64,000 nt of DNA, taken from contig JACQKD010000014.1 in the NCBI GenBank assembly GCA_016204695.1, positions 18,562 to 82,561 of the forward strand, read 5' to 3'. Origin of the DNA: Candidatus Kaiserbacteria bacterium (lineage in GTDB: Bacteria; Patescibacteriota; Minisyncoccia; Phycocordibacterales; UBA918). The notes under the pieces were generated by a model. The model was not told where the DNA came from, ran no database searches, and was given only the letters and a program-made list of their open reading frames with translations. Of the stretch, positions 9,601-53,376 are shown piece after piece. How positions within the stretch are numbered: the first letter of the stretch is position 1; each line of letters starts with the position of its first letter. A program made the position numbers and the translations under genes.

Positions 9601-10136
9601 CACATTTGGTGTTCTCCATGACAGTGGACGAAATGCGCGAGACAATGAAAGCCGGTATGCTCGCTGTCGCCTCAAGTGAGCTGGTATCGCGAGAAAATTG
9701 CGCCCATTGGTACATGGGCGACAAAATAGTTTTTTCGACCGATCCGAAACTGATGGAAACGCTCCGAAACAAAGTCATCGACGTACCGGATGACGCGAAA
9801 AGCACCCGGTCCGTCAAAGGCGCTGTCGCTTTCCCCGGAAAGGTGACGGGTACGGCGCGGATCGTCATGGTGCCTGCAGATATGGCGAAAGTACGAAAAG
9901 GAGACATTCTCGTGGCGCCGACGACCAATCCTACGCTTATGCCCGCGCTTATGACTTGTGGCGCGATCGTCACCGACGAGGGCGGCATCGCAAGCCATGC
10001 CGCGATCGTCTCGCGCGAGCTTCGAAAGCCCTGTGTCGTGGGCACCAAATACGCGACACATATCATCGCCGAAGGAGATACGGTGGAAGTCGACGCGGAT
10101 CAAGGTATAGTGAGAGTATGCCTACCAAGTACATAA
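6654..10136 (+). CDS. multidomain PEP-utilizing-enzyme family phosphotransferase: N-terminal PPDK_N ATP-grasp domain plus two PEP-utilizing mobile (swivel phosphohistidine) domains; rifampin-phosphotransferase/PEP-synthase-like
   Basis: N-terminus [10 protein letters not shown]...[12 protein letters not shown]...VVVQKMV matches PEP synthase/PPDK nucleotide-binding domain. Two copies of the mobile domain are present: ...[10 protein letters not shown]...[49 protein letters not shown] and ...[10 protein letters not shown]...[49 protein letters not shown]. There is no PEP/pyruvate TIM-barrel domain. Confidence 0.85.
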   Translation: [1160 protein letters not shown]

Positions 10137-11194
10137 GTACCGACTACTATTTTCATTTCCAGACCGGCAAGGTGCATTTTCTGCTTGCCGACATGTTTGC
10201 GCACTATTACAGCGACTTTGACGGCGTGATGCTCTCCGGTAAGGATCAGTACTCTGACTACATACACAAAAGCGGCATTGCCGAAACCGAACGAGTATAC
10301 AAGGATTTTTACAAAGACAACGATTCCCTGCGACAAATCGGTGACACGTTTGATCGCGCGGAGAAAGAGCTCCTCGATCAGCAGTCAGCCATCGCAACGA
10401 CAGAAAAGATCACTTCTGCCGACTTTGAGTCGTTTATCACATCAGCCGCGGCCATATTGGATGCATATGCGGCGTTCGACCATATTTTCACCGACCATTT
10501 ATTTAAGGACAAGCGGGAGGATATCGAAGGACTCGTTCGGGTCGCCACAGAAAAAAAGAACGTACTGCGCGAACGCATCGACCCGATTCTTTTTGGCGAT
10601 GGCACGTTCGTCGCGCTGGTGCGGAAGATCGCGAGTCAATACGGCGTTCCCGAGGATCGTATTTTCGCCGCGTCGATAGACGAAGTGCGCGAACTGCTCG
10701 CTTTCGGAAAAATGCCGGAACGAGACATACGAAACAGCGACTATGTCGTGGTCCGGGATCATGACACATATACGTATTACTTCGGAGATGAAGCGACCGC
10801 GTTTATCGCAGGATTTATCGTGGAGGAGCATCACGGGGAGGTCGGAGAGTTGAAGGGCGTATCGGTTTCCAAGAAAGGCGTCTATACGGGAACGGTGAGA
10901 AAAACATCCGTCGACTATACAAATCTCAAGGGAAGCATCGCGGAGTTTGAACACATTCCTGCAGGAATGATTCTTGTCACAGAAATGACCGTTCCGGAGA
11001 TGGTCTCGTTGATGGCTCGCTCGAAGGCAATCGTTACCGACATCGGCGGTATGCTCTGTCATGCGGCCATCACGAGCCGCGAGCTTGGCATCCCCTGCAT
11101 CATCGGCACGAAGCTCGCGACCAAAATTCTCCAGGACGGAGACGAAGTGGAAGTCGACGCGGACAAGGGGATTGTAACAATACTTACACAATAA
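10118..11194 (+). CDS. PEP-utilizing enzyme mobile-domain protein (unknown N-terminal domain plus C-terminal swivel phosphohistidine domain)
   Basis: C-terminus GVYTGTVRK...[49 protein letters not shown]. Start at internal ATG 10118 (MPTKYIS), overlapping the upstream gene end by 19 nt; the ORF-track start 9956 lies inside the upstream gene. Confidence 0.75.
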   Translation: [358 protein letters not shown]

Positions 11195-11204
11195 CTACAC
11201 AAGA

Positions 11205-12644
11205 ATGTCTCACGTTACGTATAAGGGTTTGCAGTTCGATCTTGCCTTTAAGGAATTCCATCCCCCATTACCGCTTTCGTTCTGGTCGAGTGACATATTT
11301 CTTCAGACGTATCAGCGGATAAGCGGTACCGACGTTGGTTTTATATATGCGGTAGTAGATTCTGAACTTACTGGCTATATGGAGACTGGCGGGTCGGAGC
11401 GTATCTGGGCAGCGTTGCAGGCCACACTGACGGAGGAATGGCTCCGTGGGGAACTAGAAAACTTTACACGGCAGTTCGCACATCTGAAGGCGCTTGTCGA
11501 TCCGGCTCGCACAAGCGTCTATTCACGAGGAGCACTAGTTGACCTTTTCGAATCTCTTCGCAAAACACTCGGAGAAATCTACCCGTACAGCAATGCGTTT
11601 TACGTATTGAGCAGTGAGATTGAGAAAAACGTACTTGAGAAACTCAGCAGCGCCTACGGGGAAGAGAGGGCGAACGAGATACTGGCGCAATCGAGCAGGC
11701 CCTCCCCGTCGACATCTTTGGTCACATACTGGGAACGTGTACGGTTTCTGGCCGATCGCATAGCGGGTACGCACGGAAAGGTCAAGGAGAAAGATGTTGC
11801 GGACTTGTGCGAGAATCATGACGACCTCCGAGACGAACTGGAAACCATTCGAAACGACTATTTTTGTCTGACAGCTTTAAATGCAGAAGAACGGACGGTC
11901 GCATCGATCCTCCCGGACATTGTATCCGTGATGGAGACGCCGATGCATGTAGCGGCGCCTGCGCGACCACCTGAAGTCGAAAAAGATCTATCTCTCCTTC
12001 GCACGATGATCTACTTCAAAGATGAGATATCGACCTTCATTATTCCGTATGTCTTTCATGGTCTCAAGAAACAATGGGACGCTACAGCGGCCCTGCTTGC
12101 GATTACTCCGAAAGATCTCGAGCAACTACTCATGGAAGAAGTGATAGGCGCTCTGAAACATCCCACCGAGCTGACAGAACTCGTCGAAAAAAGAAAACGG
12201 GCGACGCTTTTCTTCCATGCTCCGTTTAAGAGCACGGAAGTTATCGAAGGCACCGAAGCATCGGACGTAATCGCTTCGCTCGCCTCACAAAATCAGACGA
12301 CAGATTACTCCACCGTTACGGAAATCAAAGGAAAGGCGGGCGCTCCCGGCACGGTCACCGGTATTGTCCATAAAATCATGCACTCCAATGACATCCAGAA
12401 TTTTAAAGAAGGACACATTCTGGTGACGGTGTACACTGCACCGGAATTTGTTCCCGCCATGAAGAAGGCACGGGCCATCGTGACCGATACTGGAGGAATT
12501 ACCTGTCACGCGGCCATCGTCTCACGCGAACTCCACAAACCCTGTGTTGTAGGCACAAAAATCGCCACTGAAGTGCTCAAAGACGGAGACGAAGTGGAAG
12601 TCGACGCGGACAAGGGGATTGTAACAATACTGCACAATGAGTGA
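11205..12644 (+). CDS. PEP-utilizing enzyme mobile-domain protein (paralog)
   Basis: C-terminus [16 protein letters not shown]...[49 protein letters not shown]. Confidence 0.75.
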   Translation: [479 protein letters not shown]

Positions 12645-14079
12645 TCGGCCCTTCCCCGCAGAGGATTGGACATTTGAGTTCCAACAGAGAGGCGCTCATC
12701 CCGTCGTGATGGCCGATATCTGGTGTCGGGCGGTGTATTTCAATTTTCCCCGAGCCATAGATCTGGGTACCGTGGGCTACGACTATCTGATGACTTCCGA
12801 GTACAAGGGTTATTACCGGGCCGGAGCGCGGGAGCAAATGTTGGAAATATTCAAGGAACGGCTACAGAGTGACCCGACGTATCTCAACTACATTCTCGAT
12901 TCAACCGAAAGAAAAGCCGGGGACTTCAAGTCGTATGTGGCAGGCGGTGAGTGGGACTGGAATGCGTTTATTGAAAAGACACTCGAACTTGTCCCATGGT
13001 TCTACATACCTTGGTACGTAATGGAGTTCAACATACTGTCCGACCGAGTCGTCGGGGGTCTTGAACCGTATCGCCATACCATTGAAAACATCGTCGACTT
13101 CAATACTGCGAGCATGTTGCTGATGTTCCCCGATAAGGAAATGGAGTTCCAGAGAGAACAGGCCGCGTTCTATGCGCTTGTAACAGAAGTGAAGGAGGGT
13201 AGAGACATCGATCCTCGATCGTATCTCGAACGATTCGGCTGGATGAAAACCTTTATCCTTGCTCCCGAGGAGCCGCTCACCGAACAGGAACTAAACAAAA
13301 AGATTAAAACTGCCATTGCAGAGAGGAGCGATGAAACCTACGAACTCCAGCGGAAAAGGAGAGACGGAGACAGGGGGACGATTGTCGAACTCGAATCGCT
13401 CATCGCCGGAGACAAAAGATTGCGCCGAAGCATAGATGATGCTCGCCATCTTGGGTGGCTCCTCACCTGGAGCGTGGAAACTTCGATGCGGGCTTTCGCG
13501 ATGGGCATTCCCCGGTACAAAGAGATCGCAGACAGAATCGGACTTCTATATGATGATTGGGTATACCTCACGACTACCGAGGTTGAGCAATCTATCGCCG
13601 AAAGAAAATGTGTTGTCTCTCGCGAAGAAATAGATGCCCGCAAAGAAGCGTGGATCGTGTCGATACACGATGGTGTATTGGATATCGTGTCCGGAAGCAA
13701 AGCGAAAGAAAATATCGAGCAATTGCATATGAAGGAGACATCGAATGTTCAAAAGGATACGCAGGAAGTCGTCGGAAAACAGGCCTGCGCAGGGAAAGCA
13801 AATGGTCATGTGAGAATATGCTTGACCGCAACTGATGCGGAAGCGGTACGAGAAGGAGACATTCTGGTATGCAGTATGACCACCCCCGATTATGTCCCGG
13901 CCATGAAGCGGGCCGGGGCGATCGTCACCGATGAGGGTGGACTGCTTTGTCACGCGGCGATTATCTCTCGCGAACTCGGGAAGCCATGCGTGATCGCGAC
14001 ACGGATCGCGACGACCGTATTCAAGACCGGGGACGAGGTGGAAGTGGATGCCGATAAGGGGATTGTGAGAAAAGTATGA
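12637..14079 (+). CDS. PEP-utilizing enzyme mobile-domain protein (paralog)
   Basis: C-terminus [11 protein letters not shown]...[49 protein letters not shown]. The start overlaps the upstream stop by 8 nt. Confidence 0.75.
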   Translation: [480 protein letters not shown]

Positions 14080-18335: not shown

Positions 18336-19076
18336 ATGAGATTTGAAAACAAAGTGGTCCTAGTCACCGGTTCGAGCCGCGGAATCGGCAGAGCCACCGC
18401 GCTCGCTTTCGCGCAGGAGGGCGCACATGTGACAATAAATTACGAGAAGAACCGTGCTGATGCAGAGGACACAGTAGCCGAGATCAGAAAGATCGGCAGG
18501 GATGCTATTGCAATTCAAGCAGATGTGGCTATCGAGGATGATGTCAAAAGAATGCTTCAGGAGGCCGTAGCGCATTTCGGCGGCATAGATGTTCTCGTAA
18601 ATAACGCGGGCATCGTCTTTGATGTGCCAATACTGGAAAAGACGGTAGAGCAGTGGCAACGTACGCTTGCTGTTAATCTGATCGGGACTTTTCTGTGTAT
18701 CAAAGAGACGGTTCCGTATCTTACCGAAAGATCAGGATCGTCAATAGTTACTATTTCTTCAAATAACGGCATCGACACCGGCAGTCCGGAATCCGCCGAC
18801 TACGACGCTTCCAAAGCGGGTATTATCAGCCTAACTAAGAATTTTGCTCAAGCGTTGGCTCCCAAAATCAGAGTTAATTCCGTCGCTCCCGGTTGGATCG
18901 ACACGGACATGAACAAAGATCTGCCGGTAGAGTTTGTGGAAAGTGAGACGCAAAAAACGGCCTTGAAAAGATGGGCAAAGCCGGAGGAAATAGCAAAAGC
19001 CGCCTTGTTCTTATGCTCCGATGACGCCAGTTTCATCACTGGTTCCATTTTGGTAGCAGATGGCGGTTATCGGTAA
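18336..19076 (+). CDS. SDR family oxidoreductase (FabG-like)
   Basis: TGSSRGIGRA (cofactor-binding), NNAG, YDASKAG (catalytic YxxxK). Confidence 0.85.
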   Translation: MRFENKVVLVTGSSRGIGRATALAFAQEGAHVTINYEKNRADAEDTVAEIRKIGRDAIAIQADVAIEDDVKRMLQEAVAHFGGIDVLVNNAGIVFDVPILEKTVEQWQRTLAVNLIGTFLCIKETVPYLTERSGSSIVTISSNNGIDTGSPESADYDASKAGIISLTKNFAQALAPKIRVNSVAPGWIDTDMNKDLPVEFVESETQKTALKRWAKPEEIAKAALFLCSDDASFITGSILVADGGYR

Positions 19077-29031: not shown

Positions 29032-29104
29032 GCCACCTTAGCTCAGTTGGTAGAGCACCACTTTCGTAAAGTGGGGGTCCTCGGTTCAATCCCGAGAGGT
29101 GGCT
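29032..29104 (+). tRNA. tRNA-Thr (anticodon CGU)
   Basis: Cloverleaf: acceptor gccacct/aggtggc, D arm tagctcagttggtagagc, anticodon stem ccact/agtgg with loop ttCGTaa, T arm ctcgg-ttcaatc-ccgag. Confidence 0.8.
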
Positions 29105-29178
29105 CCGAGAGTGCGAGCACAGAAAAATCCGCGGAAAAGCGTAGGTGGGGTAAACTGCTATTATGATATGGTAGTAGT

Positions 29179-30989: not shown

Positions 30990-31766
30990 CTATATTTTCA
31001 CCTTCGCCATACGGAGCAGTTTCAAATGCGCCGCATGAAGAAGAACCGCGAACCACGCGACGACGATCGACGTGGCCGCAAGTACGTTCCCCACGATGCC
31101 GAGAACGGCATGATAAGGAGCGAAAACCAAAAACATTACCGCGACCCACATGAGCAGGAGGCGGACGCGGTCGAGGATGAATTTATAATCCTCGTCTTCG
31201 TCCGTGTTCAACAACGTACCGTTGGAGAGTTTGAATTCTGCCATGCGCAGAAGTCCGAGTATGCCCCAGCTGATCAAAAACCAGAGTAAAAATTCCACCG
31301 CCAGAATGTGATAGACCACGAGTGCGATGCCGATGACAATCGACATTGAGAGATCGCGTATCCAATCGAGTTTTGCACCAAGGACCGTCACCCTGTCATT
31401 GTTTCTCGCAAGCGGACCATCGAGCATATCGGTGAAGCCGGCGAGCAGGATGCCGACAAAAATGACTTCTACCGGTACGCCGATCCAAAACAAGCACGCA
31501 AGCGCGGCAATGAGCAGAAAGCCGAGATACGTCACCGTGTTCGGGGATATTCGCTTCATGCGGCGCGTCAGCGGCAAGAAAAGTCGGTCGCGGCGAGCGG
31601 CCTCGATCTCGGTCGCGCGGGAGAAAAAGAACGCCAGCGTCTCTTTGTGAGCAAATCGAGCGCACAGGAAATACCCGGCCGGAACCGCCAGTCCGAAGAA
31701 AATGATGCTTCCTGCAACGGAATAGAAATCCATTTCGCGTATACTAGCATACCTTTGAGAGTGCAT
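30990..31766 (-). CDS. CDP-alcohol phosphatidyltransferase family protein
   Basis: Signature D-x2-DG-x2-AR-x8-G-x3-D-x3-D: [26 protein letters not shown]; multiple TM helices. Confidence 0.75.
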
Positions 31767-31853
31767 ATACCGGTCCCGGAAACGGCATGTCGACGCTCGT
31801 GCCGATGGGGCGGTTCCATGGTTATTTTCGAGATTGGCTCTATAATGACCCGT

Positions 31854-32729
31854 ATGGAAAAAGAGGACATCAACGCACGCATAGCGACACTTGAAATCGC
31901 GATGACGCGAGCCGATTTTTGGAGTGATCCGAAGGCGGCGCAGGCGATGATCAAAGAACTCAATACGCTCAAAGAGCAGGCGGCGGGAAAGGAAAAATAT
32001 GATCGCACCAACGCAATCTTCACCATCGTCGCGGGCGCGGGAGGAGACGACGCTGAAGATTTCGCCCGGATGCTCGTCTCGATGTACCAGAAATACGCTG
32101 AAAAACGCGGCTGGAGCGTCAACATGCTCGATGAGAATAAGAACGATCGGGGCGGTTACCGCAACATCGTTTTTGAAGTGGCGGGGAAGGACGCCTACGG
32201 GATGCTAAAACGCGAGTCGGGCGTGCATCGCCTCGTGCGAATGTCGCCCTTCAATGCATCGGGAAAACGACAGACCTCGTTTACGCTTGTGGAAGTGTCG
32301 CCGAAAGTCGAGCCGGGTGAAGTGAAGCTCAATGAAGAGGATCTGGACGTGAGTTTCGCCCGCGCCGGAGGCGCGGGCGGCCAAAATGTCAACCGCCGCG
32401 AGACCGCCGTGCGCATTGTGCACAAGCCGACCAACATTTCCGTCCACGTCTCCTCCGAGCGCAGTCAGCAACAAAACCGCGAACGGGCGCTCGCACTCCT
32501 TGCCGGCAAGTTGTACACATTCGAAGAAGCGCAACACAAACGCGAAATGCAGGGTCTTTCCGTCGAAAAGACCGTGAAAATCGAGTGGGGAAGCCAGATA
32601 CGCTCGTACGTACTCCATCCCTATCAGCTCGTCAAGGACCACCGCACCGACACCGAAGTGCGCAATGTCGACGCCGTACTGGACGGCGATATAACAACTT
32701 TTCTAGACGCGGAACGAGAGCTGGGATAG
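31854..32729 (+). CDS. prfB: peptide chain release factor 2 (RF2), short N-terminus, no programmed +1 frameshift site
   Basis: SPF tripeptide ([15 protein letters not shown]), GGQ motif ([19 protein letters not shown]), C-terminal [15 protein letters not shown]. In-frame candidate starts are 31818, 31845 and 31854. I chose 31854 because a TATAAT box (31841-31846) lies 7 nt upstream and the protein then aligns with E. coli RF2 just after the usual frameshift point. Confidence 0.8.
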
Positions 32730-32775
32730 AATGGAACGCGTTGTATACGGAAGCTTCCGCAGTTGGCGCTTTTCT

Positions 32776-33456
32776 ATGATCTACTTTGATAAAGTCTCGA
32801 AAATCTACGGAGAGGAATCGATAGCCCTTGAAGACGTCACCTTTGAAGTCGCCCCGGGCGAATTTCTTTCCATCGTCGGCCACTCCGGCGCAGGCAAGAC
32901 GACACTCATAAAAATGCTCATCGTCGAGGACCGGCCGACCGCCGGTACCGTCTATTTCGAATCGAAAGATGTGCACGCCATTCCGCGCCGCCAGCTCCCG
33001 CGCTATCGCCGCAAGATCGGCACGGTATTTCAAGATTTCAAATTGCTCCCGCACAAAACCGCCTATGAAAACATCGCCTTCGCCATGGAGGCCAACGGCC
33101 GCAGTGACGAAGAGATAGAAGAAAACGTGCCGCAGGCGCTCGGACTCGTGGATCTCGCGGACAAGATCTGGAATTTCCCGCACCAGCTTTCCGGCGGCGA
33201 AAAACAGCGCGTCGCGATCGCGCGCGCCATCGTCAATCAGCCCGATCTCATCATCGCCGACGAGCCCACCGGCAATCTCGACCCGATCGCCACGTATGAA
33301 GTCGTGCAGATCCTCAAAAAAGTCAACGACCTCGGTACCACGATCATCATGACCACGCACAACAAGGGCGTGATCGATGCGCTCGGGAGACGCGTCATCA
33401 CCATGGACCGCGGACGCATTGTGCGAGACGATAGCGAAGGCAAGTATGTGCTGTAG
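32776..33456 (+). CDS. ftsE: cell division ATP-binding protein FtsE
   Basis: Walker A GHSGAGKTT, signature LSGGEKQR, Walker B LIIADEPTGNLD; followed by ftsX. Confidence 0.85.
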   Translation: MIYFDKVSKIYGEESIALEDVTFEVAPGEFLSIVGHSGAGKTTLIKMLIVEDRPTAGTVYFESKDVHAIPRRQLPRYRRKIGTVFQDFKLLPHKTAYENIAFAMEANGRSDEEIEENVPQALGLVDLADKIWNFPHQLSGGEKQRVAIARAIVNQPDLIIADEPTGNLDPIATYEVVQILKKVNDLGTTIIMTTHNKGVIDALGRRVITMDRGRIVRDDSEGKYVL

Positions 33457-33467
33457 AATAAGATTCT

Positions 33468-34409
33468 ATGTGGACTGCATGTAAGCGGATAATAAAAGCG
33501 GGAGTGGTCGGATTTTGGCGCGATGCGTTCGTCTCCTTCACCTCCGTACTTGTCATCACAGTCGCGCTCTTCATGGTCGCCACCACGCTTTTCAACAATC
33601 ACGCCCTCGAAGTGGCGCTCGAAGACCTTGAAGAGAAGGTGGACATCAATATCTACTTCACCATCACCGCCACCGAGGAAGAAATTACGGCGTTCCAAGG
33701 ATTACTCGAAGGACTGCCCGAGGTCGCGGAAGTCACCTATACGTCGCGCAGTCAGGCGCTTGAAGAATTCCGTGCGCGACACGAGGGTGACGAGCTGATC
33801 ATCAAGGGACTCAAAGAGCTTGACGACAATCCGCTCGGCGCGTCGTTGTCCGTCCGTGCAAAGGAGACGTCGCAGTACGAAGGTATCGCGACATTCGTCG
33901 TCGCCCAGCATGAAAATCCGCCATCGGGCACCTCTATCATCGACCGTGTCAATTACAATCAAAATAAAAAAGCGATCAGCCGCCTCAACGACATCATCAA
34001 CTCCACCCGCAACGACAACACCACCAAAGCGATTCTCCTCATCGCCATCGCGCTTTTTGTCTCGTTCAATACGATCCGGCTTGCAATCCACAATGCCCGC
34101 GAGGAGATCGGCGTCATGCGGCTCGTCGGCGCAAGCAACACGTTTATCAGTATGCCGTTTATGGTATCGGGCATCCTGCAGGGGCTGATTGCGGGAGTGC
34201 TCGTGGTGCTTCTCCTGTACCCGGCGCTTATTTTCTATGAAAGCGCTTTCTATCCGTTTCCGTTTTTCGACGAGGCGGGATACGGCAAGCTTCTCTTCGG
34301 CTATTTCGTCATCAACTTCGCCGCCATATTCTTCACCATCGTCGGTAGCGGCATCCTCATTGGAGCGATTTCCAGCTTTCTCGCGGTGCGGCGGTATCTC
34401 AGAATATAG
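33468..34409 (+). CDS. ftsX: cell division permease-like protein FtsX
   Basis: N-terminal TM, large periplasmic loop, three C-terminal TM helices; position downstream of ftsE. Confidence 0.8.
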   Translation: MWTACKRIIKAGVVGFWRDAFVSFTSVLVITVALFMVATTLFNNHALEVALEDLEEKVDINIYFTITATEEEITAFQGLLEGLPEVAEVTYTSRSQALEEFRARHEGDELIIKGLKELDDNPLGASLSVRAKETSQYEGIATFVVAQHENPPSGTSIIDRVNYNQNKKAISRLNDIINSTRNDNTTKAILLIAIALFVSFNTIRLAIHNAREEIGVMRLVGASNTFISMPFMVSGILQGLIAGVLVVLLLYPALIFYESAFYPFPFFDEAGYGKLLFGYFVINFAAIFFTIVGSGILIGAISSFLAVRRYLRI

Positions 34410-34418
34410 CGTACGAAT

Positions 34419-36083
34419 ATGACGGCACGACAGCATACGGAAGAACGGAACACCACACGAAAATACATCTTTGTCGTCGGCGGCGTAATGTCATCGGTCG
34501 GCAAAGGCATCGCGACGGCCTCCATCGGCAAAATACTGCAAGCGCGCGGTTACAAAGTCTCGCTCGTGAAGTGCGACATGTACGTCAACATCGACGCGGG
34601 CACCATCCGCCCGACCGAGCACGGCGAGGTGTTCGTCGGTGAAGACGGCATCGAAGCCGACCAAGACCTCGGCAACTACGAGCGCTTCACCGACCAGACC
34701 TCGACCGCCCTCCATTACCTCACCACCGGACAGGTCTATGCCGAGGTCATCAAGCGCGAGCGCAACTTGGAATACGGCGGCGAGGACGTGGAAGTCGTCC
34801 CGGATATCCCGAACGAAATCATCCGCCGTATCAAGCTCGCGGGAGAGACGGACCAGAGCGACTTCGTCGTCATCGAAATCGGCGGCACTGTCGGCGAATA
34901 TCAAAACGTGCTGTTTCTCGAAGCCGGACGCATGATGAAGGCGCGCCACAAAAACGACGTGCTCTTTGTCCTCGTGAGCTACCTGCCCATTCCGGGAAAA
35001 GTCGGCGAAATGAAAACCAAGCCGACCCAATACGCCGCACGGACGCTCAACGCAACCGGCATCCAAGCTGACTTCATCCTCTGCCGTTCCGAACACATGA
35101 TCGATGAGAAACGCCGCGAGAAGCTCGCGCTCTTTTGCAACATCGAACCGGAGGATGCCATCGCCGCGCCGGATGTGGACTCCATCTATGACGTGCCGGT
35201 CAACTTCGCGCGCGATGGACTCGACCTGCGCATCTTGCAAAAGTTCGGGCTTGAACCGAAAGCGGACAATCTCGGGCAGTGGTCTGCGCTCGCGGAAAAA
35301 ATCAAAACCCTTACGGATACCGTCTCCATCGGGGTGGTCGGCAAATATTTCAATACCGGTGACTTTACGCTCGCCGATTCATACATTTCCGTCCTTGAGT
35401 CCATCAAGCACGCGGCGTGGGAAGCAGGCGTCAAACCGAAAATCTCGTGGCTCGATGCCGAAGCATACGAAAAAGACCCGTCAAAACTCTCCGAGCTTTC
35501 CGGCTACGACGGCATCATCGTCCCGGGCGGCTTCGGCTCGCGCGGAGTGGAAGGCAAAATCCTCGCCGTCGAATACGTCCGCAAAAACAACATCCCCTAC
35601 CTCGGCCTCTGTTACGGCCTCCAGATGGCCGTCATAGAATACGCCCGCAATGTCTGCGGGCTCGCGGATGCCAATACCACGGAAGTAAACAAAGACACCC
35701 CGCACCCCGTCATCGACGTCATGGTCGACCAGAAAGCAAATATCGCAGAAAAGAAAATGGGCGGCACCATGCGTCTCGGCGCCTATCCCTGTGAGCTCAA
35801 AGACGGCACCATAAGTAGGGAAGCGTATGGAAAGAAAAACATCAGTGAACGGCACCGCCATCGCTATGAAGTCAACAACGAATACCGCGCACAACTCGAA
35901 GAGGCAGGTCTCGTCATAGCCGGCCGCAACCCCGACCGCGACCTCGTTGAAATCATCGAGCTTCCGCAGTCGAAACACCCGTTCTTCGTCGGCGTCCAAT
36001 TCCACCCCGAATTCCTCTCCCGCCCCCTTGCTCCGCACCCCCTCTTTATGGCATTTATTAAGGCGGCGACAAAGACAAAGTAA
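34419..36083 (+). CDS. pyrG: CTP synthase
   Basis: N-terminal synthetase motifs (KYIFVVGGVMSSVGKGIATASIG), C-terminal class I glutamine amidotransferase (GLCYGLQMAVIEYARNV...HRHRYEVN). Confidence 0.95.
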   Translation: MTARQHTEERNTTRKYIFVVGGVMSSVGKGIATASIGKILQARGYKVSLVKCDMYVNIDAGTIRPTEHGEVFVGEDGIEADQDLGNYERFTDQTSTALHYLTTGQVYAEVIKRERNLEYGGEDVEVVPDIPNEIIRRIKLAGETDQSDFVVIEIGGTVGEYQNVLFLEAGRMMKARHKNDVLFVLVSYLPIPGKVGEMKTKPTQYAARTLNATGIQADFILCRSEHMIDEKRREKLALFCNIEPEDAIAAPDVDSIYDVPVNFARDGLDLRILQKFGLEPKADNLGQWSALAEKIKTLTDTVSIGVVGKYFNTGDFTLADSYISVLESIKHAAWEAGVKPKISWLDAEAYEKDPSKLSELSGYDGIIVPGGFGSRGVEGKILAVEYVRKNNIPYLGLCYGLQMAVIEYARNVCGLADANTTEVNKDTPHPVIDVMVDQKANIAEKKMGGTMRLGAYPCELKDGTISREAYGKKNISERHRHRYEVNNEYRAQLEEAGLVIAGRNPDRDLVEIIELPQSKHPFFVGVQFHPEFLSRPLAPHPLFMAFIKAATKTK

Positions 36084-47158: not shown

Positions 47159-47968
47159 ATGTTTAAGAAAATCTTATACGGCGTCGGCGGGGTAGTTATC
47201 CTTATAGTCATATTCAGCACGATTGGATACAAAGACAACAAGACAGGTCCTAAAGACATTTTTAGTTTACAAGAAGCTATCGTAACAGGACCTTTCTCCA
47301 CGAACACACCAGTATCGGGAGAACAACCGGTACCAGGGCAAGAAGAAAACGTCACATATTATCGAGTAATCAAAGTGGTTGACGGAGATACGATTGCTGT
47401 TGATATGGACGGGAAAACGGAAACGATACGACTGATCGGGATCAACACGCCGGAGACGGTAGACCCGCGAAAGCAGGTGGAATGTTTCGGTCGCGAAGCG
47501 TCGGACAAAGCAAAAGAATTACTCTCCGGCAAACGCGTACGAGTAGAGACGGACGCCACGCAAGGAGAGCGGGACAAATACGGCCGCCTCTTGGCGTATA
47601 TCTATCTCGAAGACGGACTCTTTTTCAACAAGCACATGATCGAGGAAGGATACGCATACGAGTATACGTACAATCTGCCATACAAATACCAAGCAGAGTT
47701 CAGAGCGGCACAACAGTCCGCGCAAGCCGGCGAAAAAGGTCTGTGGACTAAAGGAGTATGTGACAGCAGATCAACAGCGACGCCGTCTCCGTCAATTCCG
47801 GCATCTGTTTCCTCCGACTATTCATGTGCGGAAGATACCTACAATTGCGGCGGCTTCAAAACGCATGCCGAGGCTCAATCCGCATACGAGGCCTGCGGCG
47901 GGACGGGAAACGACATCCATCACCTCGATCAAGATGGGGATGGGTTGGCCTGCGAAAGCTTACCTTAA
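47159..47968 (+). CDS. nuc: secreted thermonuclease (SNase-like) with C-terminal Excalibur calcium-binding domain
   Basis: N-terminal TM/signal; VVDGDTIAV...IRLIGINTPE...YGRLLAYIY (staphylococcal nuclease fold motifs); C-terminal HLDQDGDGLACE (Excalibur DxDxDGxxCE). Confidence 0.8.
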   Translation: MFKKILYGVGGVVILIVIFSTIGYKDNKTGPKDIFSLQEAIVTGPFSTNTPVSGEQPVPGQEENVTYYRVIKVVDGDTIAVDMDGKTETIRLIGINTPETVDPRKQVECFGREASDKAKELLSGKRVRVETDATQGERDKYGRLLAYIYLEDGLFFNKHMIEEGYAYEYTYNLPYKYQAEFRAAQQSAQAGEKGLWTKGVCDSRSTATPSPSIPASVSSDYSCAEDTYNCGGFKTHAEAQSAYEACGGTGNDIHHLDQDGDGLACESLP

Positions 47969-47995
47969 GCGTCCGTTCGTCGATTTCTACCGAAG

Positions 47996-48043
47996 CAAAA
48001 AGCGCCGCCGCCGGGGCAAAGCCCCGGCGGCGGCGCTTTTTGC
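47996..48043. terminator. strong rho-independent terminator (17-bp GC stem, bidirectional)
   Basis: aaaaagcgccgccgccggggc-aaa-gccccggcggcggcgctttttgc. Confidence 0.65.
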
Positions 48044-48114
48044 TTCTCACAATCCCAAATGGTACTCTTATCCGCAGAAACTGGAGAATACTGTTTATCC
48101 GTATATCGTTACAT

Positions 48115-49284
48115 ATGATTAATTCAAAAAAGATTATCTGGGGTGTAGTAGTGCTCATCGCACTTGTTGCCATTGCTTTTTTCTCAATGAAAAAGAGTCC
48201 GGAAGCGCCTGACACCGCTACCAAAAACGAGGATACGGGTCCCATAAAAGTCGGCGTCATACTGCCGCTGACCGGAGATGGCGCAGTATACGGCGAGCCC
48301 GCGAGAAACATCTACCAGATGGCGGTCGTGGAGATCAATGCCGCCGACGGTGTTGGAGGCAGGATGCTTGAGCTCGTCGTCGAAGACAGCAAGTGCACCG
48401 GGGAGACGGCAGTAAGCGCCGCACAGAAACTTATAAACGTCGACAAGGTAAAAGTAATTATTGGCGGATTCTGCAGTAGCGAGTCACTTGCCGCAACACC
48501 GGTGGCTGCAAACGCCAAAGTGGTGCTCTTCTCGCCCGGCTCGTCGAGTCCGGATCTCACGGGTGCAAGTCCGTTTTTCTTCCGCAATTATCCGAGCGAC
48601 GCATCACAGGGTACTGTACTCGCGCGAATCGCATACAACGACAAAAAGTATAAGACCGTGGCATTTATTCAGGAGCAAACAGACTATGCGGCCGGAGTAT
48701 ACAAGGCCTTTAATGAAGAATTCACCAAGCTCGGCGGTACGGTCACAAACGAGAGTTTCCCGACGAAGAACACCGATTTTCGAGCGATTGTTACGAAGAT
48801 AAAAGACGCGAAGCCCGATGCGGTCTTTATTGACACGCAGACTCCGGCAGTCGGAACCCGGATCATGCAACAATCAGAACAGCTTCAATATAAACCCGCC
48901 TTAATCGTCAACGATGTTATTTCAGGCGACCCCGATACCGTCACGCAAAATGCCGAGTTTCTGGAAGGGGCACTCACGGCGGAGTTTGGCATTGATCCGC
49001 AAAATCAGAAATTCCAGCACTTGATAACGGCATACAAGGAAAAGTACGGGCAGGAGCCTCCGTACCAAAGCTATGCGCAGACCGAATACGACGCGGTCTT
49101 CATGGTCCGCGACGCGCTCCTCGCAAACGGCGAGGATGGCGAGAAGATCGCCAAGTGGTCGCGCACAGTGAAAGACTGGGAGGGCGCTTCGGGAAAGATC
49201 ACCATTCTCCCCAGCGGCGACCGCGACGGCGGCCACTCGCCGAGAGTGATTAAGAGTGGTAAAGTGGCGCCGTATACCAAATAA
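48115..49284 (+). CDS. branched-chain amino acid ABC transporter substrate-binding protein (LivJ/K-like, PBP type 1)
   Basis: Signal anchor; IKVGVILPLTGDGAVYGE...; periplasmic binding protein family 1 pattern; start at internal ATG (MINSKK). Confidence 0.85.
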   Translation: MINSKKIIWGVVVLIALVAIAFFSMKKSPEAPDTATKNEDTGPIKVGVILPLTGDGAVYGEPARNIYQMAVVEINAADGVGGRMLELVVEDSKCTGETAVSAAQKLINVDKVKVIIGGFCSSESLAATPVAANAKVVLFSPGSSSPDLTGASPFFFRNYPSDASQGTVLARIAYNDKKYKTVAFIQEQTDYAAGVYKAFNEEFTKLGGTVTNESFPTKNTDFRAIVTKIKDAKPDAVFIDTQTPAVGTRIMQQSEQLQYKPALIVNDVISGDPDTVTQNAEFLEGALTAEFGIDPQNQKFQHLITAYKEKYGQEPPYQSYAQTEYDAVFMVRDALLANGEDGEKIAKWSRTVKDWEGASGKITILPSGDRDGGHSPRVIKSGKVAPYTK

Positions 49285-49295
49285 CCAACCGGATT

Positions 49296-50429
49296 ATGAA
49301 CAACACAGGCAAATGGGTGGGAGGGGTGGTAGTGGTCATCGCCCTTATCGCGATCGTCGTATTCGCGATGCGGAGCGGCAAGAGCGATTCGACCGATACG
49401 AACGCGACAAGCACGGAAAAGAGCACGATAAAAATCGGACTTTCGTTACCGCTCACCGGCGACCTCGCCTTCATCGGCGAAACCGATCGCAATGCCGCAC
49501 AGCTTGCGCTTGAGGAGGTCAATAAACAGGAGGGGCTTAAGCATAACTATGAGCTCGTGTTCGAAGACGACTCGTTCAATGCGGCGAAAGCGGCGAGTGT
49601 CATAAAAAAGTTTACGAGCATAGACAAAGTTGATGCAGTCATCAGCATTGGCTCAACGGCAGGGAATGTCGTTGCGCCCGTTGCCGAAACCAATCGCATT
49701 CCACACATCGGGGCGGGTGCTTCTGATTCGACTATCGCCAAGGGCGATTACAATTTCATTCACTGGACGCGACCACAGGAGGAAGCGGACGCGATGCTCA
49801 AAGAACTCCAAAAACGAAAAATAACAAAAGTCGCGGCCCTGGTAGCTAATCAGCAAGGCCTCCAGGCAATGAATACAGAACTCAAAAATAAAGCCGGGGC
49901 CGTTGGCATTACTATTACCGATGAGACATTCAATCTTGGACAGACCGATTTCCGCACAACCATCTCAAAGATTGAAAAGGAAAAACCGGAAATATACCTT
50001 CTGGGAGCATTTGACCCTGAAGTCGGCATCATCGCAAAACAAATCCGTGAGCTCGGTATCAAAACACCGCTGACTTCTATTGAATCGTTCGCGCTCACCG
50101 CCGACTTGAAACCGTTTGAGGGACAGTGGTTCGTCGATGCGGCCGTTCCGACAAGCCAATTCGGCGGCACATACCAACAAAAGTATGGCAAAGAACCCGG
50201 GCCTGCGGCGGCAAATACCTACGACGCGATCCATCTCTTGGTGAAAGCGTTTGAAGCAGTGCCGGGAGACGGAAAGCCGGCGAGTGACCAAGTTGCCAAA
50301 GCGCTTGGCGGGACACAGGGATACAGTGGGGCGCTTGGCCCGCTGTCGGTCAACTCTGATGGGATATTCATCTCACAGGCGGCAATAAAAATCGTTAAGG
50401 ATGGAAAAGCGGTAGCGGTGCAAGAATAG
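49296..50429 (+). CDS. branched-chain amino acid ABC transporter substrate-binding protein (paralog 2)
   Basis: IKIGLSLPLTGDLAFIGE...; same family. Confidence 0.85.
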   Translation: MNNTGKWVGGVVVVIALIAIVVFAMRSGKSDSTDTNATSTEKSTIKIGLSLPLTGDLAFIGETDRNAAQLALEEVNKQEGLKHNYELVFEDDSFNAAKAASVIKKFTSIDKVDAVISIGSTAGNVVAPVAETNRIPHIGAGASDSTIAKGDYNFIHWTRPQEEADAMLKELQKRKITKVAALVANQQGLQAMNTELKNKAGAVGITITDETFNLGQTDFRTTISKIEKEKPEIYLLGAFDPEVGIIAKQIRELGIKTPLTSIESFALTADLKPFEGQWFVDAAVPTSQFGGTYQQKYGKEPGPAAANTYDAIHLLVKAFEAVPGDGKPASDQVAKALGGTQGYSGALGPLSVNSDGIFISQAAIKIVKDGKAVAVQE

Positions 50430-50503
50430 CGCAAAGACTCCGAAACCCACAAAAACCGCTCGCGGATGAGCGGTTTTTGTGGGATAGTAGCCATAATTCC
50501 GCC

Positions 50504-51364
50504 ATGGACATCATCCCTCAACTCGTCGTCAACAGCATCATCGCAGGCGCGATATACAGCATGGTCGCGCTTGGCTTCAATCTCATTTACGGGACGACCA
50601 AATTTTTCAACCTCGCGCACGGCACTGTCGCCGCCATCGGCGGGTACACCGTCTTTTACCTTTCAAAATCTCTCGATTTTCCCGTACTGCCAAGCGTCAT
50701 CGTCGGCGTCTTATTTGCCGGATGCATCGGCTATCTGGTCGACAAAAGCGTGTTCCGGGCGTTACGAAAAAAGAAGGCCTCGGGCATGGTCTTTCTCGTG
50801 GCTTCGCTCGGCGTTATGACAGCGCTCCAGGCACTGGTCGCCATACTCTTTTCGAGCCAATTCCAAACACTGTCCGTCGGGTCTGCAAAAGTCTACCAGG
50901 TCTTCGGAGGCGTCATCACGCAGGTGCAGGCAATCATCTTGCTCTGCGTGCTTCTCATCATGGCCGGATTGACGCTTCTGCTCCGGTTCACCCGCTTCGG
51001 CAAAGCGGTAAGAGCGACGAGCGATGAAGAAGAAGTCGCCAAAATCGTCGGCATCAATACAAACAAAATCATCGGCAGAGTATTTTTCCTCGGTTCGGCA
51101 ATTGCCGGACTCTCCGGCATACTCGTCGGCTTTGACACCGGCATTGAGCCGGCAATGGGACTCTCGCTCTTGCTCAAGGGTGTGATTGCTTCCATCATCG
51201 GCGGCATCGGCAACGTCTACGGCGGCGTACTTGGCGCGTTCCTTCTCGGGTTCATTGAGAACTTCGGCATCTGGAAAATTTCCGGCGAATGGAAGGACGC
51301 AATCGCTTTCGGCGTATTGCTCATTTTCCTCCTCTTCAGGCCGCAGGGACTCATTAAAAAATAG
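50504..51364 (+). CDS. livH: branched-chain amino acid ABC transporter permease (LivH-like)
   Basis: MDIIPQLVVNSIIAGAIYSMVALGFNLIYG N-terminus typical of LivH; 8-9 TM helices. Confidence 0.8.
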   Translation: MDIIPQLVVNSIIAGAIYSMVALGFNLIYGTTKFFNLAHGTVAAIGGYTVFYLSKSLDFPVLPSVIVGVLFAGCIGYLVDKSVFRALRKKKASGMVFLVASLGVMTALQALVAILFSSQFQTLSVGSAKVYQVFGGVITQVQAIILLCVLLIMAGLTLLLRFTRFGKAVRATSDEEEVAKIVGINTNKIIGRVFFLGSAIAGLSGILVGFDTGIEPAMGLSLLLKGVIASIIGGIGNVYGGVLGAFLLGFIENFGIWKISGEWKDAIAFGVLLIFLLFRPQGLIKK

Positions 51365-51370
51365 CTCTCT

Positions 51371-52237
51371 ATGGAATACTTCATCCACCTCGGCATACTC
51401 GTCGCCATATACGCCATTCTCGCGCTCTCGCTCAATCTCGTGATTGGCTACACGGGACTGCTCTCGGTAACCCAAGCCGCCTTCTACGGCATCGGCGCGT
51501 ACGCGACCGCCATCCTCATCACCTCCTATGATGTCAATTTTTTTCTTTCAATACTCATCGGCATGGCGGCGACAGGCCTTGCCGCCTTTATCATCGGATA
51601 CGTGCTGTCGAGATTCGACGGAGACTACTTTGCGCTCGGCTCGTTTGGGTTCAACATCATCATCTTCAGCATATTCATGAACTGGCAAGAGCTGACGCGA
51701 GGACCTTTGGGAATCCCGGGAATCGACCGGCCGTCCCTTTTCGGGTTCGTCTTTTCGGATAACACGCCGTTCCTCGTCCTCGCGGCGCTACTCGCAGTCC
51801 TCGCTTACTTCCTCTGCCAATTCATTGTCCATTCATCGTTCGGCAGAGTACTTAAGGCCATCAGGGAAGACGAGAAAGCGATACAAATATTCGGATACAA
51901 AACCGGCTACTACAAGCTCGTCGTATTCATAGTCGGCGCAATGGTCGCCTCGGTCGGCGGGTCGCTCTTCGCATCGTATATTACTTTCATTGACCCCTCA
52001 TCGTTCCACCTCAACGAGTCGATATTCGTGCTCGCAATCATCATTCTCGGGGGACTTGCCAACAATAAAGGAGCAGTCTGGGGAGCCGCCTTCCTCATCC
52101 TTCTCCCCGAAGCCCTGCGCTTCGTCGGCTTCCCCACCGACATCGCCGCTCAGATGCGCCAGGTCGTCTACGGCCTCATCCTCGTCCTCCTCATGCTGTA
52201 CCGACCGCAAGGCTTGATGGGAGAGTATAAATTATGA
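51371..52237 (+). CDS. livM: branched-chain amino acid ABC transporter permease (LivM-like)
   Basis: Polytopic membrane protein following livH; GYTGLLSVTQAAFYGIGAY motif region. Confidence 0.8.
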   Translation: MEYFIHLGILVAIYAILALSLNLVIGYTGLLSVTQAAFYGIGAYATAILITSYDVNFFLSILIGMAATGLAAFIIGYVLSRFDGDYFALGSFGFNIIIFSIFMNWQELTRGPLGIPGIDRPSLFGFVFSDNTPFLVLAALLAVLAYFLCQFIVHSSFGRVLKAIREDEKAIQIFGYKTGYYKLVVFIVGAMVASVGGSLFASYITFIDPSSFHLNESIFVLAIIILGGLANNKGAVWGAAFLILLPEALRFVGFPTDIAAQMRQVVYGLILVLLMLYRPQGLMGEYKL

Positions 52238-52257
52238 AGTTGTGGTAGATTACCTTT

Positions 52258-53376
52258 ATGAAAAAGACGCTTATTGGTACGGCCATTATCCTAGTTCTTG
52301 CAAGTCTCGTTCTGGTAGTTGCAAAAAATAACAAGCGGACTACAGATGGTTCTGTAAAAGTTGGTGCTGTCTTGTTTCTGACCGGCAATCAAGCGGTATT
52401 TGGCGAGGAAATACGCAATTCATTACTCCTGGCAAACGAGGTATATAACGCCGACGCAGACACTAACGTCGAACTTCTGATCGAAGATAGCCAGGATGAC
52501 CCGAAGGCTGGAATAAGCGCATACAACAAACTCAAACAGCAGGGTGTGTCCGCGATGATCTCTGCCGGCGATCAAGTAAGCTACGCGCTTTCTCCGCTTG
52601 CCAATAACGATAAATTACCTCTTGTGATGACGGCGGCTGCGGCTGGCGAGATCAATGGAGACTACACATTTCGATCATTTATTACTGCACGGAAGCAAGC
52701 GGAAGTTGTGGGCAATTATGCGGTAGAAGACCTCAAAAGCAAAAACATCGGTGTACTCTACATAAATAATATCTTTGGAGAGTCGTATCTAGACGCTCTC
52801 AAAGCGGCACTCCACGACAGAGCTGCAGTCGTTTCTGAGGAGGCGTTCAATATAGCGGACAGTGAATTGCGAACGCAGATAACAAAAGTTATCGCGAGCG
52901 AGCCTGATGCGATAGTGATTTCCGGTTTCGGGCCTGGCTATACGACTGCTTTCAACCAGCTTCGGCAATACGGTTGGCGAGGAAGTATCCTGACGGTAAA
53001 TACGCTTTCCATTCCGTATGTGTTCAATACCATCGCCCCCGCTAACCTGCACGATACGTATTTCACTGACACCAATTTTGACATCAGTGAGCCTGCGAAC
53101 GCAAAGACCGCAGAATTCATCAAACGATATAAGGAAAAGTACAAGACTAATCCAAGCTTTATCGGGGCATTCGCATACGACATGTATACGGTATTGGGCT
53201 CCGCGATTCAAAAATGCGGCTCTGACCCGGAAGAAATCAAAGATTGTCTCCTAGATATACAAGGTGTGGATGCAATGCTCGGCGATATTGATTTCTCCAC
53301 CCACGAGATGCGCGTCCCGCTCTACGTTAAAAAGGTTGAGGACGGCACACCAGCCATTGTCAAAGTCATAGAGTAA
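52258..53376 (+). CDS. branched-chain amino acid ABC transporter substrate-binding protein (paralog 3)
   Basis: VKVGAVLFLTGNQAVFGE...; PBP1 family. Confidence 0.8.
   Translation: MKKTLIGTAIILVLASLVLVVAKNNKRTTDGSVKVGAVLFLTGNQAVFGEEIRNSLLLANEVYNADADTNVELLIEDSQDDPKAGISAYNKLKQQGVSAMISAGDQVSYALSPLANNDKLPLVMTAAAAGEINGDYTFRSFITARKQAEVVGNYAVEDLKSKNIGVLYINNIFGESYLDALKAALHDRAAVVSEEAFNIADSELRTQITKVIASEPDAIVISGFGPGYTTAFNQLRQYGWRGSILTVNTLSIPYVFNTIAPANLHDTYFTDTNFDISEPANAKTAEFIKRYKEKYKTNPSFIGAFAYDMYTVLGSAIQKCGSDPEEIKDCLLDIQGVDAMLGDIDFSTHEMRVPLYVKKVEDGTPAIVKVIE

Follow-up and report, generated by a model that had tools for sequence, protein, structure and literature searches.

This work concerns prfB, the gene for release factor 2 (RF2), in a metagenome-assembled genome of a Candidatus Kaiserbacteria bacterium (NCBI GenBank assembly GCA_016204695.1, contig JACQKD010000014.1, forward-strand positions 18,562 to 82,561). 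This whole stretch of 64,000 nucleotides (nt) is called the window below, and coordinates refer to it unless they are preceded by the number of a comparison locus (L); proteins from the searches are numbered P. The gene lies between a divergently transcribed CDP-alcohol phosphatidyltransferase gene and the genes ftsE, ftsX and pyrG (table 1). It is read in a single frame, has no correctly framed site for a programmed +1 frameshift, and encodes a factor of 291 amino acids (aa) in which the N-terminal domain 1 is predicted to be cut to a two-helix hairpin of ~45 residues. We consider it very likely that this is the orthologous housekeeping prfB of Candidatus Kaiserbacteria (Parcubacteria/Paceibacteria, Candidate Phyla Radiation, CPR) in a derived, minimised form.

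Table 1. Features of the prfB locus in the window, and the comparison loci grouped by form of RF2 and by sequence ahead of prfB
Feature	Position or locus	Strand	Remarks
tRNA-Thr(CGU)	29032..29106	+	~2.7 kb upstream of prfB, with inserted genes between
CDP-alcohol phosphatidyltransferase, divergent	30990..31766	-	NCBIfam/Pfam profiles, comparison with L086
In-frame open stretch, not coding for RF2	31647..31853	+	antisense to or beside the divergent gene; not conserved in relatives
CTTTGA hexamer, chance motif	31753..31758	+	frame 1 (coordinate modulo 3); +1 shift leads to frame 2, prfB body in frame 0
TATAAT, -10-like box of a putative promoter	31841..31846	+	7 nt before ATG 31854, no Shine-Dalgarno sequence between
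prfB, RF2 of 291 aa	31854..32729	+	ATG start, TAG stop (32727-32729), single frame throughout
Domain 1 remnant, two predicted helices (residues 3-17, 26-44) around conserved DFW	31860..31985	+	~E. coli residues 25-69
Deletion junction, residues 44/45 (...EQAA/GKEKYD...)	31983..31988	+	same junction in P0002 and P0121-P0126
SPF tripeptide (RF2-type 'anticodon'), residues 131-133	32244..32252	+	invariant in 56 homologues
GGQ peptidyl-tRNA hydrolysis motif, residues 175-177	32376..32384	+	invariant in 56 homologues
ftsE	32731..33456	+	TIGR02673 score 271 bits (exceeds the cutoff); start lies 2 nt beyond the prfB stop
ftsX	33468..34409	+	NCBIfam profile
pyrG (CTP synthase)	34419..36083	+	conserved fourth gene of the block
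TATACT/TACAAT boxes at or near starts of long open reading frames	5828, 17373, 30681	-	
TATACT/TACAAT boxes at or near starts of long open reading frames	15749, 20483, 46297, 46837, 57902	+	
Full-length RF2, canonical frameshift	L092, L093		ORF0 (MEHFPEKIKKLLEEILKVQDCL*), AGGAC, CTTTGA(C/T) in correct frame; tRNA-Thr upstream in L093
Full-length RF2, in frame	L012, L080, L050, L027		Azambacteria, Collierbacteria, Peribacteria and Altimarinota, respectively
291-aa hairpin form	window, L002-L005		
252-255 aa form, 23 residues before GxGG	L072-type clade		83 of 120 matches listed; NCBI name 'peptide chain release factor 2'
tRNA-Thr gene ends one base before prfB ATG	L003, L004		Adlerbacteria and Kaiserbacteria, respectively
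Terminator hairpin, then TATACT 7-8 nt before prfB ATG	L082, L084, L087		
Divergent CDP-alcohol transferase as in window; TATACT 7 nt before prfB ATG	L086		
TATACT 8-9 nt before prfB ATG	L088, L091		
prfB start overlapped by upstream gene	L089, L090		

A preliminary description of this DNA had named the protein RF2 from its SPF and GGQ motifs, and comparison with protein families and structures bears this out. The best NCBIfam family is TIGR00020 (prfB; E 1.4e-104, 349.9 bits), Pfam recognises both a PCRF (148 bits) and an RF-1 domain (117 bits), all of the top phmmer matches among solved structures are RF2 (E 1.5e-78), and the predicted structure is matched best in Foldseek by E. coli RF2 (1gqe, E 3e-30). 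Domains 2 and 4, which form the decoding superdomain and hold SPF, are complete and highly conserved, and so is domain 3, the catalytic domain, which holds GGQ. An identity as RF1 is ruled out by the score against the prfA profile (TIGR00019, 229.6 bits for a cutoff of 423) and by the presence of SPF instead of a PxT motif; ArfB, a factor of ~140 aa that consists of the GGQ domain alone and a basic C-terminal tail, is likewise ruled out, with 44.9 bits for a cutoff of 100 and with the decoding domains present. Nonetheless, the protein misses the trusted cutoff of TIGR00020 (370 bits), because the N-terminal third of the profile finds no counterpart in it; only positions 111-350 of 353 are matched. 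This shortfall is also the reason why the identical NCBI protein (P0001, Candidatus Kaiserbacteria bacterium, 100% identity, 291 aa, from a contig of 152.9 kb) bears the name 'PCRF domain-containing protein'.

The missing third of the profile corresponds to domain 1. Three ATG codons had been proposed as starts (31818, 31845 and 31854); all are in frame, and the last is the one that agrees both with the N-termini of the homologues (MEKED...) and with the NCBI protein. In a MAFFT alignment Met1 stands opposite residue 25 of E. coli RF2, which is the frameshift codon, and thus the protein does begin where E. coli RF2 resumes after its shift, as had been proposed. The N-terminus is indeed shortened, but the earlier estimate of 25-50 lost N-terminal residues needs correction, for the alignment shows that ~50 residues are missing from the interior as well (E. 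coli ~70-119), which, together with the 24 N-terminal ones, bring the total missing to ~74. Accordingly, 60 residues precede the GxGG motif here, as against 130-134 in canonical RF2. The phmmer alignments show the same break, the N-terminus being aligned to residues 24-73 of the solved RF2 and the remainder to residues 100-359, in two stretches that overlap on the query. In an AlphaFold2 model made with 56 homologues (mean predicted local distance difference test score 84, with 79-89 in the remnant blocks; predicted template modelling score 0.79), only two helices precede the first strand of domain 2, and the four-helix domain 1 is incomplete. To judge from the alignment, what is kept is helix 2 with the start of helix 3, and what is lost is helix 1 (encoded elsewhere by ORF0, the open reading frame, ORF, that precedes the frameshift site) and the coiled coil of helices 3 and 4.

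The loss of helix 1 coincides with the absence of the programmed +1 frameshift, which the preliminary description had also reported. The entire RF2 body lies in one frame down to its stop codon, as described, and this frame is open from 31647 to 32729. The only CTTTGA nearby had been recognised as being out of frame with prfB; that judgement holds, although the position then given for it (31752-31757) was one base off. A +1 shift on this hexamer enters a frame that hits a stop before the prfB body. The hexamer sits in the spacer or in the 5' end of the divergent gene, and the chance of meeting one given hexamer in ~200 nt is of the order of p ~0.05. E. coli prfB with its CTTTGAC site (NC_000913) served as a reference, and as a positive control a script for frameshift sites was run on 80 loci, one genome per species. 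Most of the non-CPR loci scanned proved to have, at 105-109 codons ahead of GxGG and correctly framed, a Shine-Dalgarno (SD)-like sequence and CTTTGAC; in the short-form loci it detected no canonical SD plus CTTTGAC in the correct frame. The sole in-frame CTATGA among the latter (L003, 11 codons before GxGG) is neither CTTTGA nor at the canonical position.

One could imagine that a longer N-terminus is supplied by hidden recoding, through an upstream ORF in another frame or through a shift site other than CTTTGA, as the frame is open upstream to 31647 and a CTTTGA occurs 100 nt upstream. We consider this extremely improbable. The hexamer is out of frame and the shifted frame terminates; the open upstream stretch is not conserved and stays free of stops only because the divergent CDP-alcohol phosphatidyltransferase gene lies opposite or next to it. 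Most relatives have stop codons in the prfB frame 10-50 codons ahead of the ATG, and stops occur there in all frames. The same script, moreover, readily detected genuine sites elsewhere. A check for an upstream exon in another frame found none: in the relatives the ATG is abutted by a tRNA-Thr gene, by a terminator and a -10 box, or by the end of a gene. The sequence that borders on the ATG varies from locus to locus, yet there is no room for ORF0 upstream in any short-form locus examined. The deletion of ORF0 took out the cassette composed of the SD sequence and CUU-UGA-C, and therefore RF2 synthesis here cannot be autoregulated by +1 frameshifting. The absence of the frameshift is in itself ordinary among bacteria; it has been reported for 36% of 12,753 RefSeq species genomes and for the whole of three phyla, and the loss of the frameshift correlates with high content of guanine plus cytosine (GC) and high TGA usage (PMC12421855).

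The short form is not peculiar to a single assembly. The best 120 matches listed are 70-83% identical to the protein of the window, almost all of them are 289-294 aa long, and they come from NCBI, JGI, ENA and Logan assemblies; in 103 of them 57-65 residues precede GxGG, and in 43 exactly 60. Those short-form homologues that carry a name are Kaiserbacteria or Paceibacterota, and a genome scan added the loci L002-L004, which comprise one Adlerbacteria, one labelled 'Patescibacteria group' and another Kaiserbacteria. In an alignment of 56 sequences the mean column identity is 79%, and residues M17, F22 and W23 of the domain 1 remnant are invariant. Between the window and L086, the nonsynonymous and synonymous divergences (dN/dS) are 0.21/~2 in the remnant, where dS is saturated, and 0.12/1.2 in the rest of the protein; as synonymous sites are saturated in most pairs, such ratios give a rough bound only. 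They suggest that the remnant evolves faster than the rest of the protein and yet is constrained. After clustering at 50% identity, colinear short forms make up only ~7 of the 150 best representatives, so that the short-form clade is rich in sequences but phylogenetically bounded. The preliminary description had left its claim to be checked against orthologues that might carry a full N-terminal domain, and the claim withstood this check: the close ones (the best 120 listed) share the short form. All three of its claims (RF2, no programmed +1 frameshift, a shortened N-terminus) stand. More distant Parcubacteria orthologues are full-length.

These comparisons bear also on the suspicion that the short gene results from faulty assembly or annotation, or is a pseudogene in decay. 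Such a suspicion is natural for a metagenome-assembled source, the more so as prfB genes are commonly called too short, which turned out to be the case for P0370 and P0385. However, the same architecture recurs in >100 independent assemblies, the catalytic and decoding motifs are all invariant, dN is far below dS and the structure is modelled with confidence, which makes an artefact or a pseudogene hardly credible. The short form is thus real, lineage-wide and, on these sequence comparisons, under selection. In one Kaiserbacteria homologue (RIFCSPHIGHO2_02_FULL_55_25, L004:161-1090) there is a low-complexity insertion of ~23 residues, DAAQRAASQKASSPAALPGGTGP, in domain 2, located between the strands that precede the SPF loop.

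The neighbourhood of the gene is equally informative about its identity. The block prfB-ftsE-ftsX(-pyrG) is common to the window and its close relatives, and the same prfB-ftsE-ftsX block stands behind the full-length, frameshifted prfB of the Parcubacteria loci L092 and L093. A tRNA-Thr gene (CGU or GGU) lies 0-400 nt upstream of prfB in most of the Parcubacteria loci examined, and up to ~0.9 kb upstream in L089 and L090; it is seen with both short and full-length prfB (L002, L003:2904-2982, L004:87-163, L072, L082, L084, L089-L091 and L093). Because the gene of the window holds the same position, between tRNA-Thr and ftsE-ftsX, as the full-length frameshifted genes, we take it to be their orthologue. 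The idea of a separately encoded substitute for domain 1 was weighed and discarded; no small gene is conserved beside prfB, and the upstream neighbours differ in nearly every locus. In L084 a small ORF and a PIN-domain gene, likely a toxin-antitoxin pair, are inserted between prfB and ftsE (L084:10919-11546).

An alternative is that the gene encodes a specialised RF2-like paralogue, acting in rescue or at alternative signals in the manner of PrfH or ArfB, while a canonical full-length RF2 has its gene at another place in the genome. Natural class-I factors without domain 1 do exist (PrfH), the score is under the prfB trusted cutoff, and only 64 kb of a contig of at least 153 kb is in view. Nevertheless, SPF and the decoding residues around it are canonical and invariant, the score against the PrfH profile (TIGR03072) is a mere 94.6 bits for a cutoff of 166.65 and that against ArfB is 44.9, there is no neighbouring RtcB gene, and the gene occupies the very position of the full-length frameshifted prfB of other Parcubacteria. 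In addition, a tblastn search with the RF2 of the window found a second release factor neither in the window nor in any of the fetched flanks and loci. On balance a paralogue of this kind seems quite improbable, and the gene is treated in what follows as the genuine prfB.

When the survey is widened to the CPR as a whole, four states of RF2 are found (table 1). In L092 and L093 a 22-codon ORF0 is followed by AGGAC and a CTTTGA(C/T) +1 frameshift site (L092:930-1001 and L093:930-1001, P0370 and P0385). Other CPR lineages encode a full-length RF2 in frame. At the opposite extreme is an RF2 of 252-255 aa in which domain 1 is absent (P0272-P0369; L072:2968-3735), found in genomes labelled Portnoybacteria, Parcubacteria group or Patescibacteria group; the locus L072 bears the label Saccharibacteria, perhaps through a problem of binning or labelling. 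These proteins resemble that of the window in lacking the frameshift and in having a tRNA-Thr gene upstream (in L072, the sole locus examined), and their core is clearly related, that of L072 being 47% identical to the query; they differ in that 23 rather than 60 residues precede GxGG, the DFW hairpin being kept only in the window form. A supposed intermediate, an RF2 of 344-348 aa that lacks helix 1 and in some cases starts with TTG/Leu, was discarded, as the DNA reveals these to be truncated gene calls of frameshifted genes. Because distant Parcubacteria orthologues at the same locus keep ORF0, the frameshift site and the full domain 1, the short unshifted prfB is most likely derived within the CPR from a frameshifted ancestor at the same locus, and is not a general CPR trait.

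The loss of ORF0 raises the question of how the short gene is transcribed and translated. In seven of nine distinct close loci, the window included, a -10 box (TATA(A/C)T, often TGn-extended) lies 7-9 nt before the ATG; the sequence farther upstream is unrelated among these loci, and the upstream genes differ. A strict sigma-70 scan of 31500-32000, which called for a -35 as well as a -10 element, found no promoter, and hence the case for one rests solely on the conserved -10 box. Its spacing suggests that the prfB mRNA is leaderless, beginning at or next to the AUG at 31854. In L003 and L004, processing of the tRNA-Thr would free an mRNA that begins at the AUG. Nor would the arrangement be peculiar to prfB: about eight other ORFs in the window have TATACT or TACAAT 6-9 nt before the ATG and no SD sequence, and leaderless transcripts seem from such boxes to be common in this genome for the first genes of operons.

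The same protein could also be made from a leadered mRNA, from the ATG at 31845 or 31818, or from a transcript that originates farther upstream. The -10 box of the window has neither a TGn extension nor a recognisable -35, there is a second TATACT at 31740-31745, the TATAAT of L002 is 14 nt upstream, and L089 and L090 look translationally coupled to the upstream gene. On the other hand, the box recurs at its distance of 7-9 nt in loci whose upstream sequences are unrelated, no SD sequence is present, the ATG at 31845 overlaps the TATAAT box itself, and the N-termini of the homologues fit MEKED.... The TATACT at 31740 coincides with a TAGTAT box of the divergent gene. That gene probably starts at the ATG at 31733 (MDFYS...) and not at 31766, a start supported by alignment with the L086 homologue and by the TAGTAT box on the minus strand (31746-31741), 7 nt upstream; the true spacer to prfB would therefore be 120 nt. 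An in-frame TTG at 31755, behind the TATACT, was rejected as a start of prfB, for the extension is not conserved and the box falls on the -10 element that the divergent gene has on the minus strand. We regard a leadered or co-transcribed message, or one of the two other starts, as rather unlikely, and a leaderless one as the better account of the conserved box.

The stop codons of the window are in accord with a functional RF2. Among 67 long, non-overlapping ORFs, which cover 90% of the window, 28 end in TAA, 21 in TAG and 18 in TGA; UGA is thus a stop codon in this genome, as had been argued from the presence of RF2 itself. Since TAG is also in use, prfB itself ending in it, RF1 must be encoded elsewhere. 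Two further groups of genes in the window may be recorded in passing. At 6654-14079 (plus strand) a gene for a PPDK_N/PEP-utilizers protein of 1160 aa comes first; beyond a gap of ~1.1 kb, in which there is a minus-strand ORF, come two paralogous genes for proteins of ~480 aa, which have only the C-terminal PEP-utilising 'mobile' domain and no recognised N-terminal domain. The stretch 47824-53376 (plus strand) has three genes for periplasmic binding proteins of the Peripla_BP_6 type (486, 377 and 372 aa), of which the first is extended at the N-terminus by ~140 residues.

Compared with canonical RF2 (E. coli prfB, b2891, and T. thermophilus RF2; PDB 1gqe and 2ihr), the factor shares domains 2-4, SPF, GGQ and the fold, with a core identity of ~33-48%, but it has 291 rather than 365 aa, having lost helix 1 and the greater part of the coiled coil of helices 3 and 4, and its gene is without ORF0, the SD-CUU-UGA-C cassette and, it appears, a 5' leader. 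The in-frame prfB genes of Actinomycetota, Thermotogota and Mycoplasmatota are similar in having a single frame and no autoregulatory recoding; as far as they are described, however, they encode full-length RF2, and no truncation is mentioned (PMC12421855). PrfH (RF-H) is another GGQ factor that does without the coiled-coil domain 1, and its independence from RF3 has been predicted, but it has ~200 aa, altered decoding motifs and RtcB as its partner, whereas the factor of the window keeps SPF and the prfB locus, where its neighbours are the CDP-alcohol transferase and ftsE. A precedent for the proposed mode of action is given by the engineered truncations of E. coli RF1 and RF2, which kept codon-specific release and no longer stimulated nucleotide exchange on RF3 (Mora et al. 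2003, as far as reported in PMC1586002). Those are laboratory constructs; the reduction in the window is natural, partial (the hairpin stays) and fixed in a clade.

The same source describes domain 1 as the least conserved domain of the release factors. In vitro, codon-specific release does not need it; RF1 in truncated form is functional in vivo, and domain 1 is required for stimulating RF3 nucleotide exchange (Mora et al. 2003, again as far as reported in PMC1586002). In RF1 complexes, helices 2 and 3 of domain 1 contact the N-terminal domain of L11 and domain 3 of RF3 (PMC3677378). The short factor would be expected to terminate at UGA and UAA like any RF2. Since in E. coli domain 1 is used in recycling by RF3 and in touching the L11 stalk, the short factor would most likely leave the ribosome without the help of RF3, which would fit the general reduction of the translation apparatus in the CPR. 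For CPR, Patescibacteria or Parcubacteria, a search in an incomplete body of literature found no paper on a shortened RF2, on RF3 or on leaderless mRNAs; the reduction of domain 1 thus appears to be undescribed, and it is consistent with the known dispensability of this domain.

From these elements a history of the locus can be proposed. It would begin with a full-length, frameshifted prfB, pass through the 291-aa hairpin form now seen in the window, and end with the 253-aa form without domain 1. What set it in motion may have been the loss of DNA between the tRNA-Thr gene upstream and the frameshift site, which would have abolished autoregulation and left prfB leaderless or dependent on tRNA processing. 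It is quite possible, though we hold this view only tentatively, that domain 1 of RF2 has undergone such stepwise erosion in Parcubacteria and that its stages mark clades in which termination is fully independent of RF3 and of the L11 stalk.

Several observations weigh, in whole or in part, against the reading of the gene as a housekeeping prfB in minimised form. The score of the protein remains under the prfB cutoff. The retained helices are, by sequence, those that touch L11 and RF3 in RF1, so that some residual contact with the stalk could survive, geometry permitting. None of RF1, RF3, PrmC or an unusual L11 is encoded in the 64-kb window, and the independence from RF3 is thus something that we infer. 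High TGA usage fits poorly as the explanation for the loss of the frameshift, as the window has 52% GC and TGA makes up 27% of its stops. The putative promoter is of an imperfect kind, and in L089 and L090 prfB overlaps an upstream gene in place of a promoter.

The case is of interest for the survey of prfB frameshifting cited above (PMC12421855), the text of which is without CPR and which is here extended by a CPR group that both keeps and loses the motif; the loss came about by deletion of an N-terminal segment, where TGA usage is not high. It also has a practical side. In CPR genomes the presence or absence of RF2, judged by TIGR00020, has been used to tell UGA as a stop from UGA as a sense codon (PMC8629427), and pipelines with a strict threshold could wrongly call RF2 missing in Kaiserbacteria-like genomes, which bears on calls of the genetic code. 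The gene of the window illustrates CPR streamlining and does not represent a system of a new kind. If the proposed history is true, these would be the minimal natural class-I release factors that serve as the sole terminators at UGA and UAA. Three graded natural variants (~370, 291 and 253 aa) are at hand for probing the part of domain 1 in release factor recycling and stalk contact. The short form offers, moreover, a natural, clade-wide confirmation that domain 1 of the release factor and the frameshift autoregulation of prfB are both dispensable.

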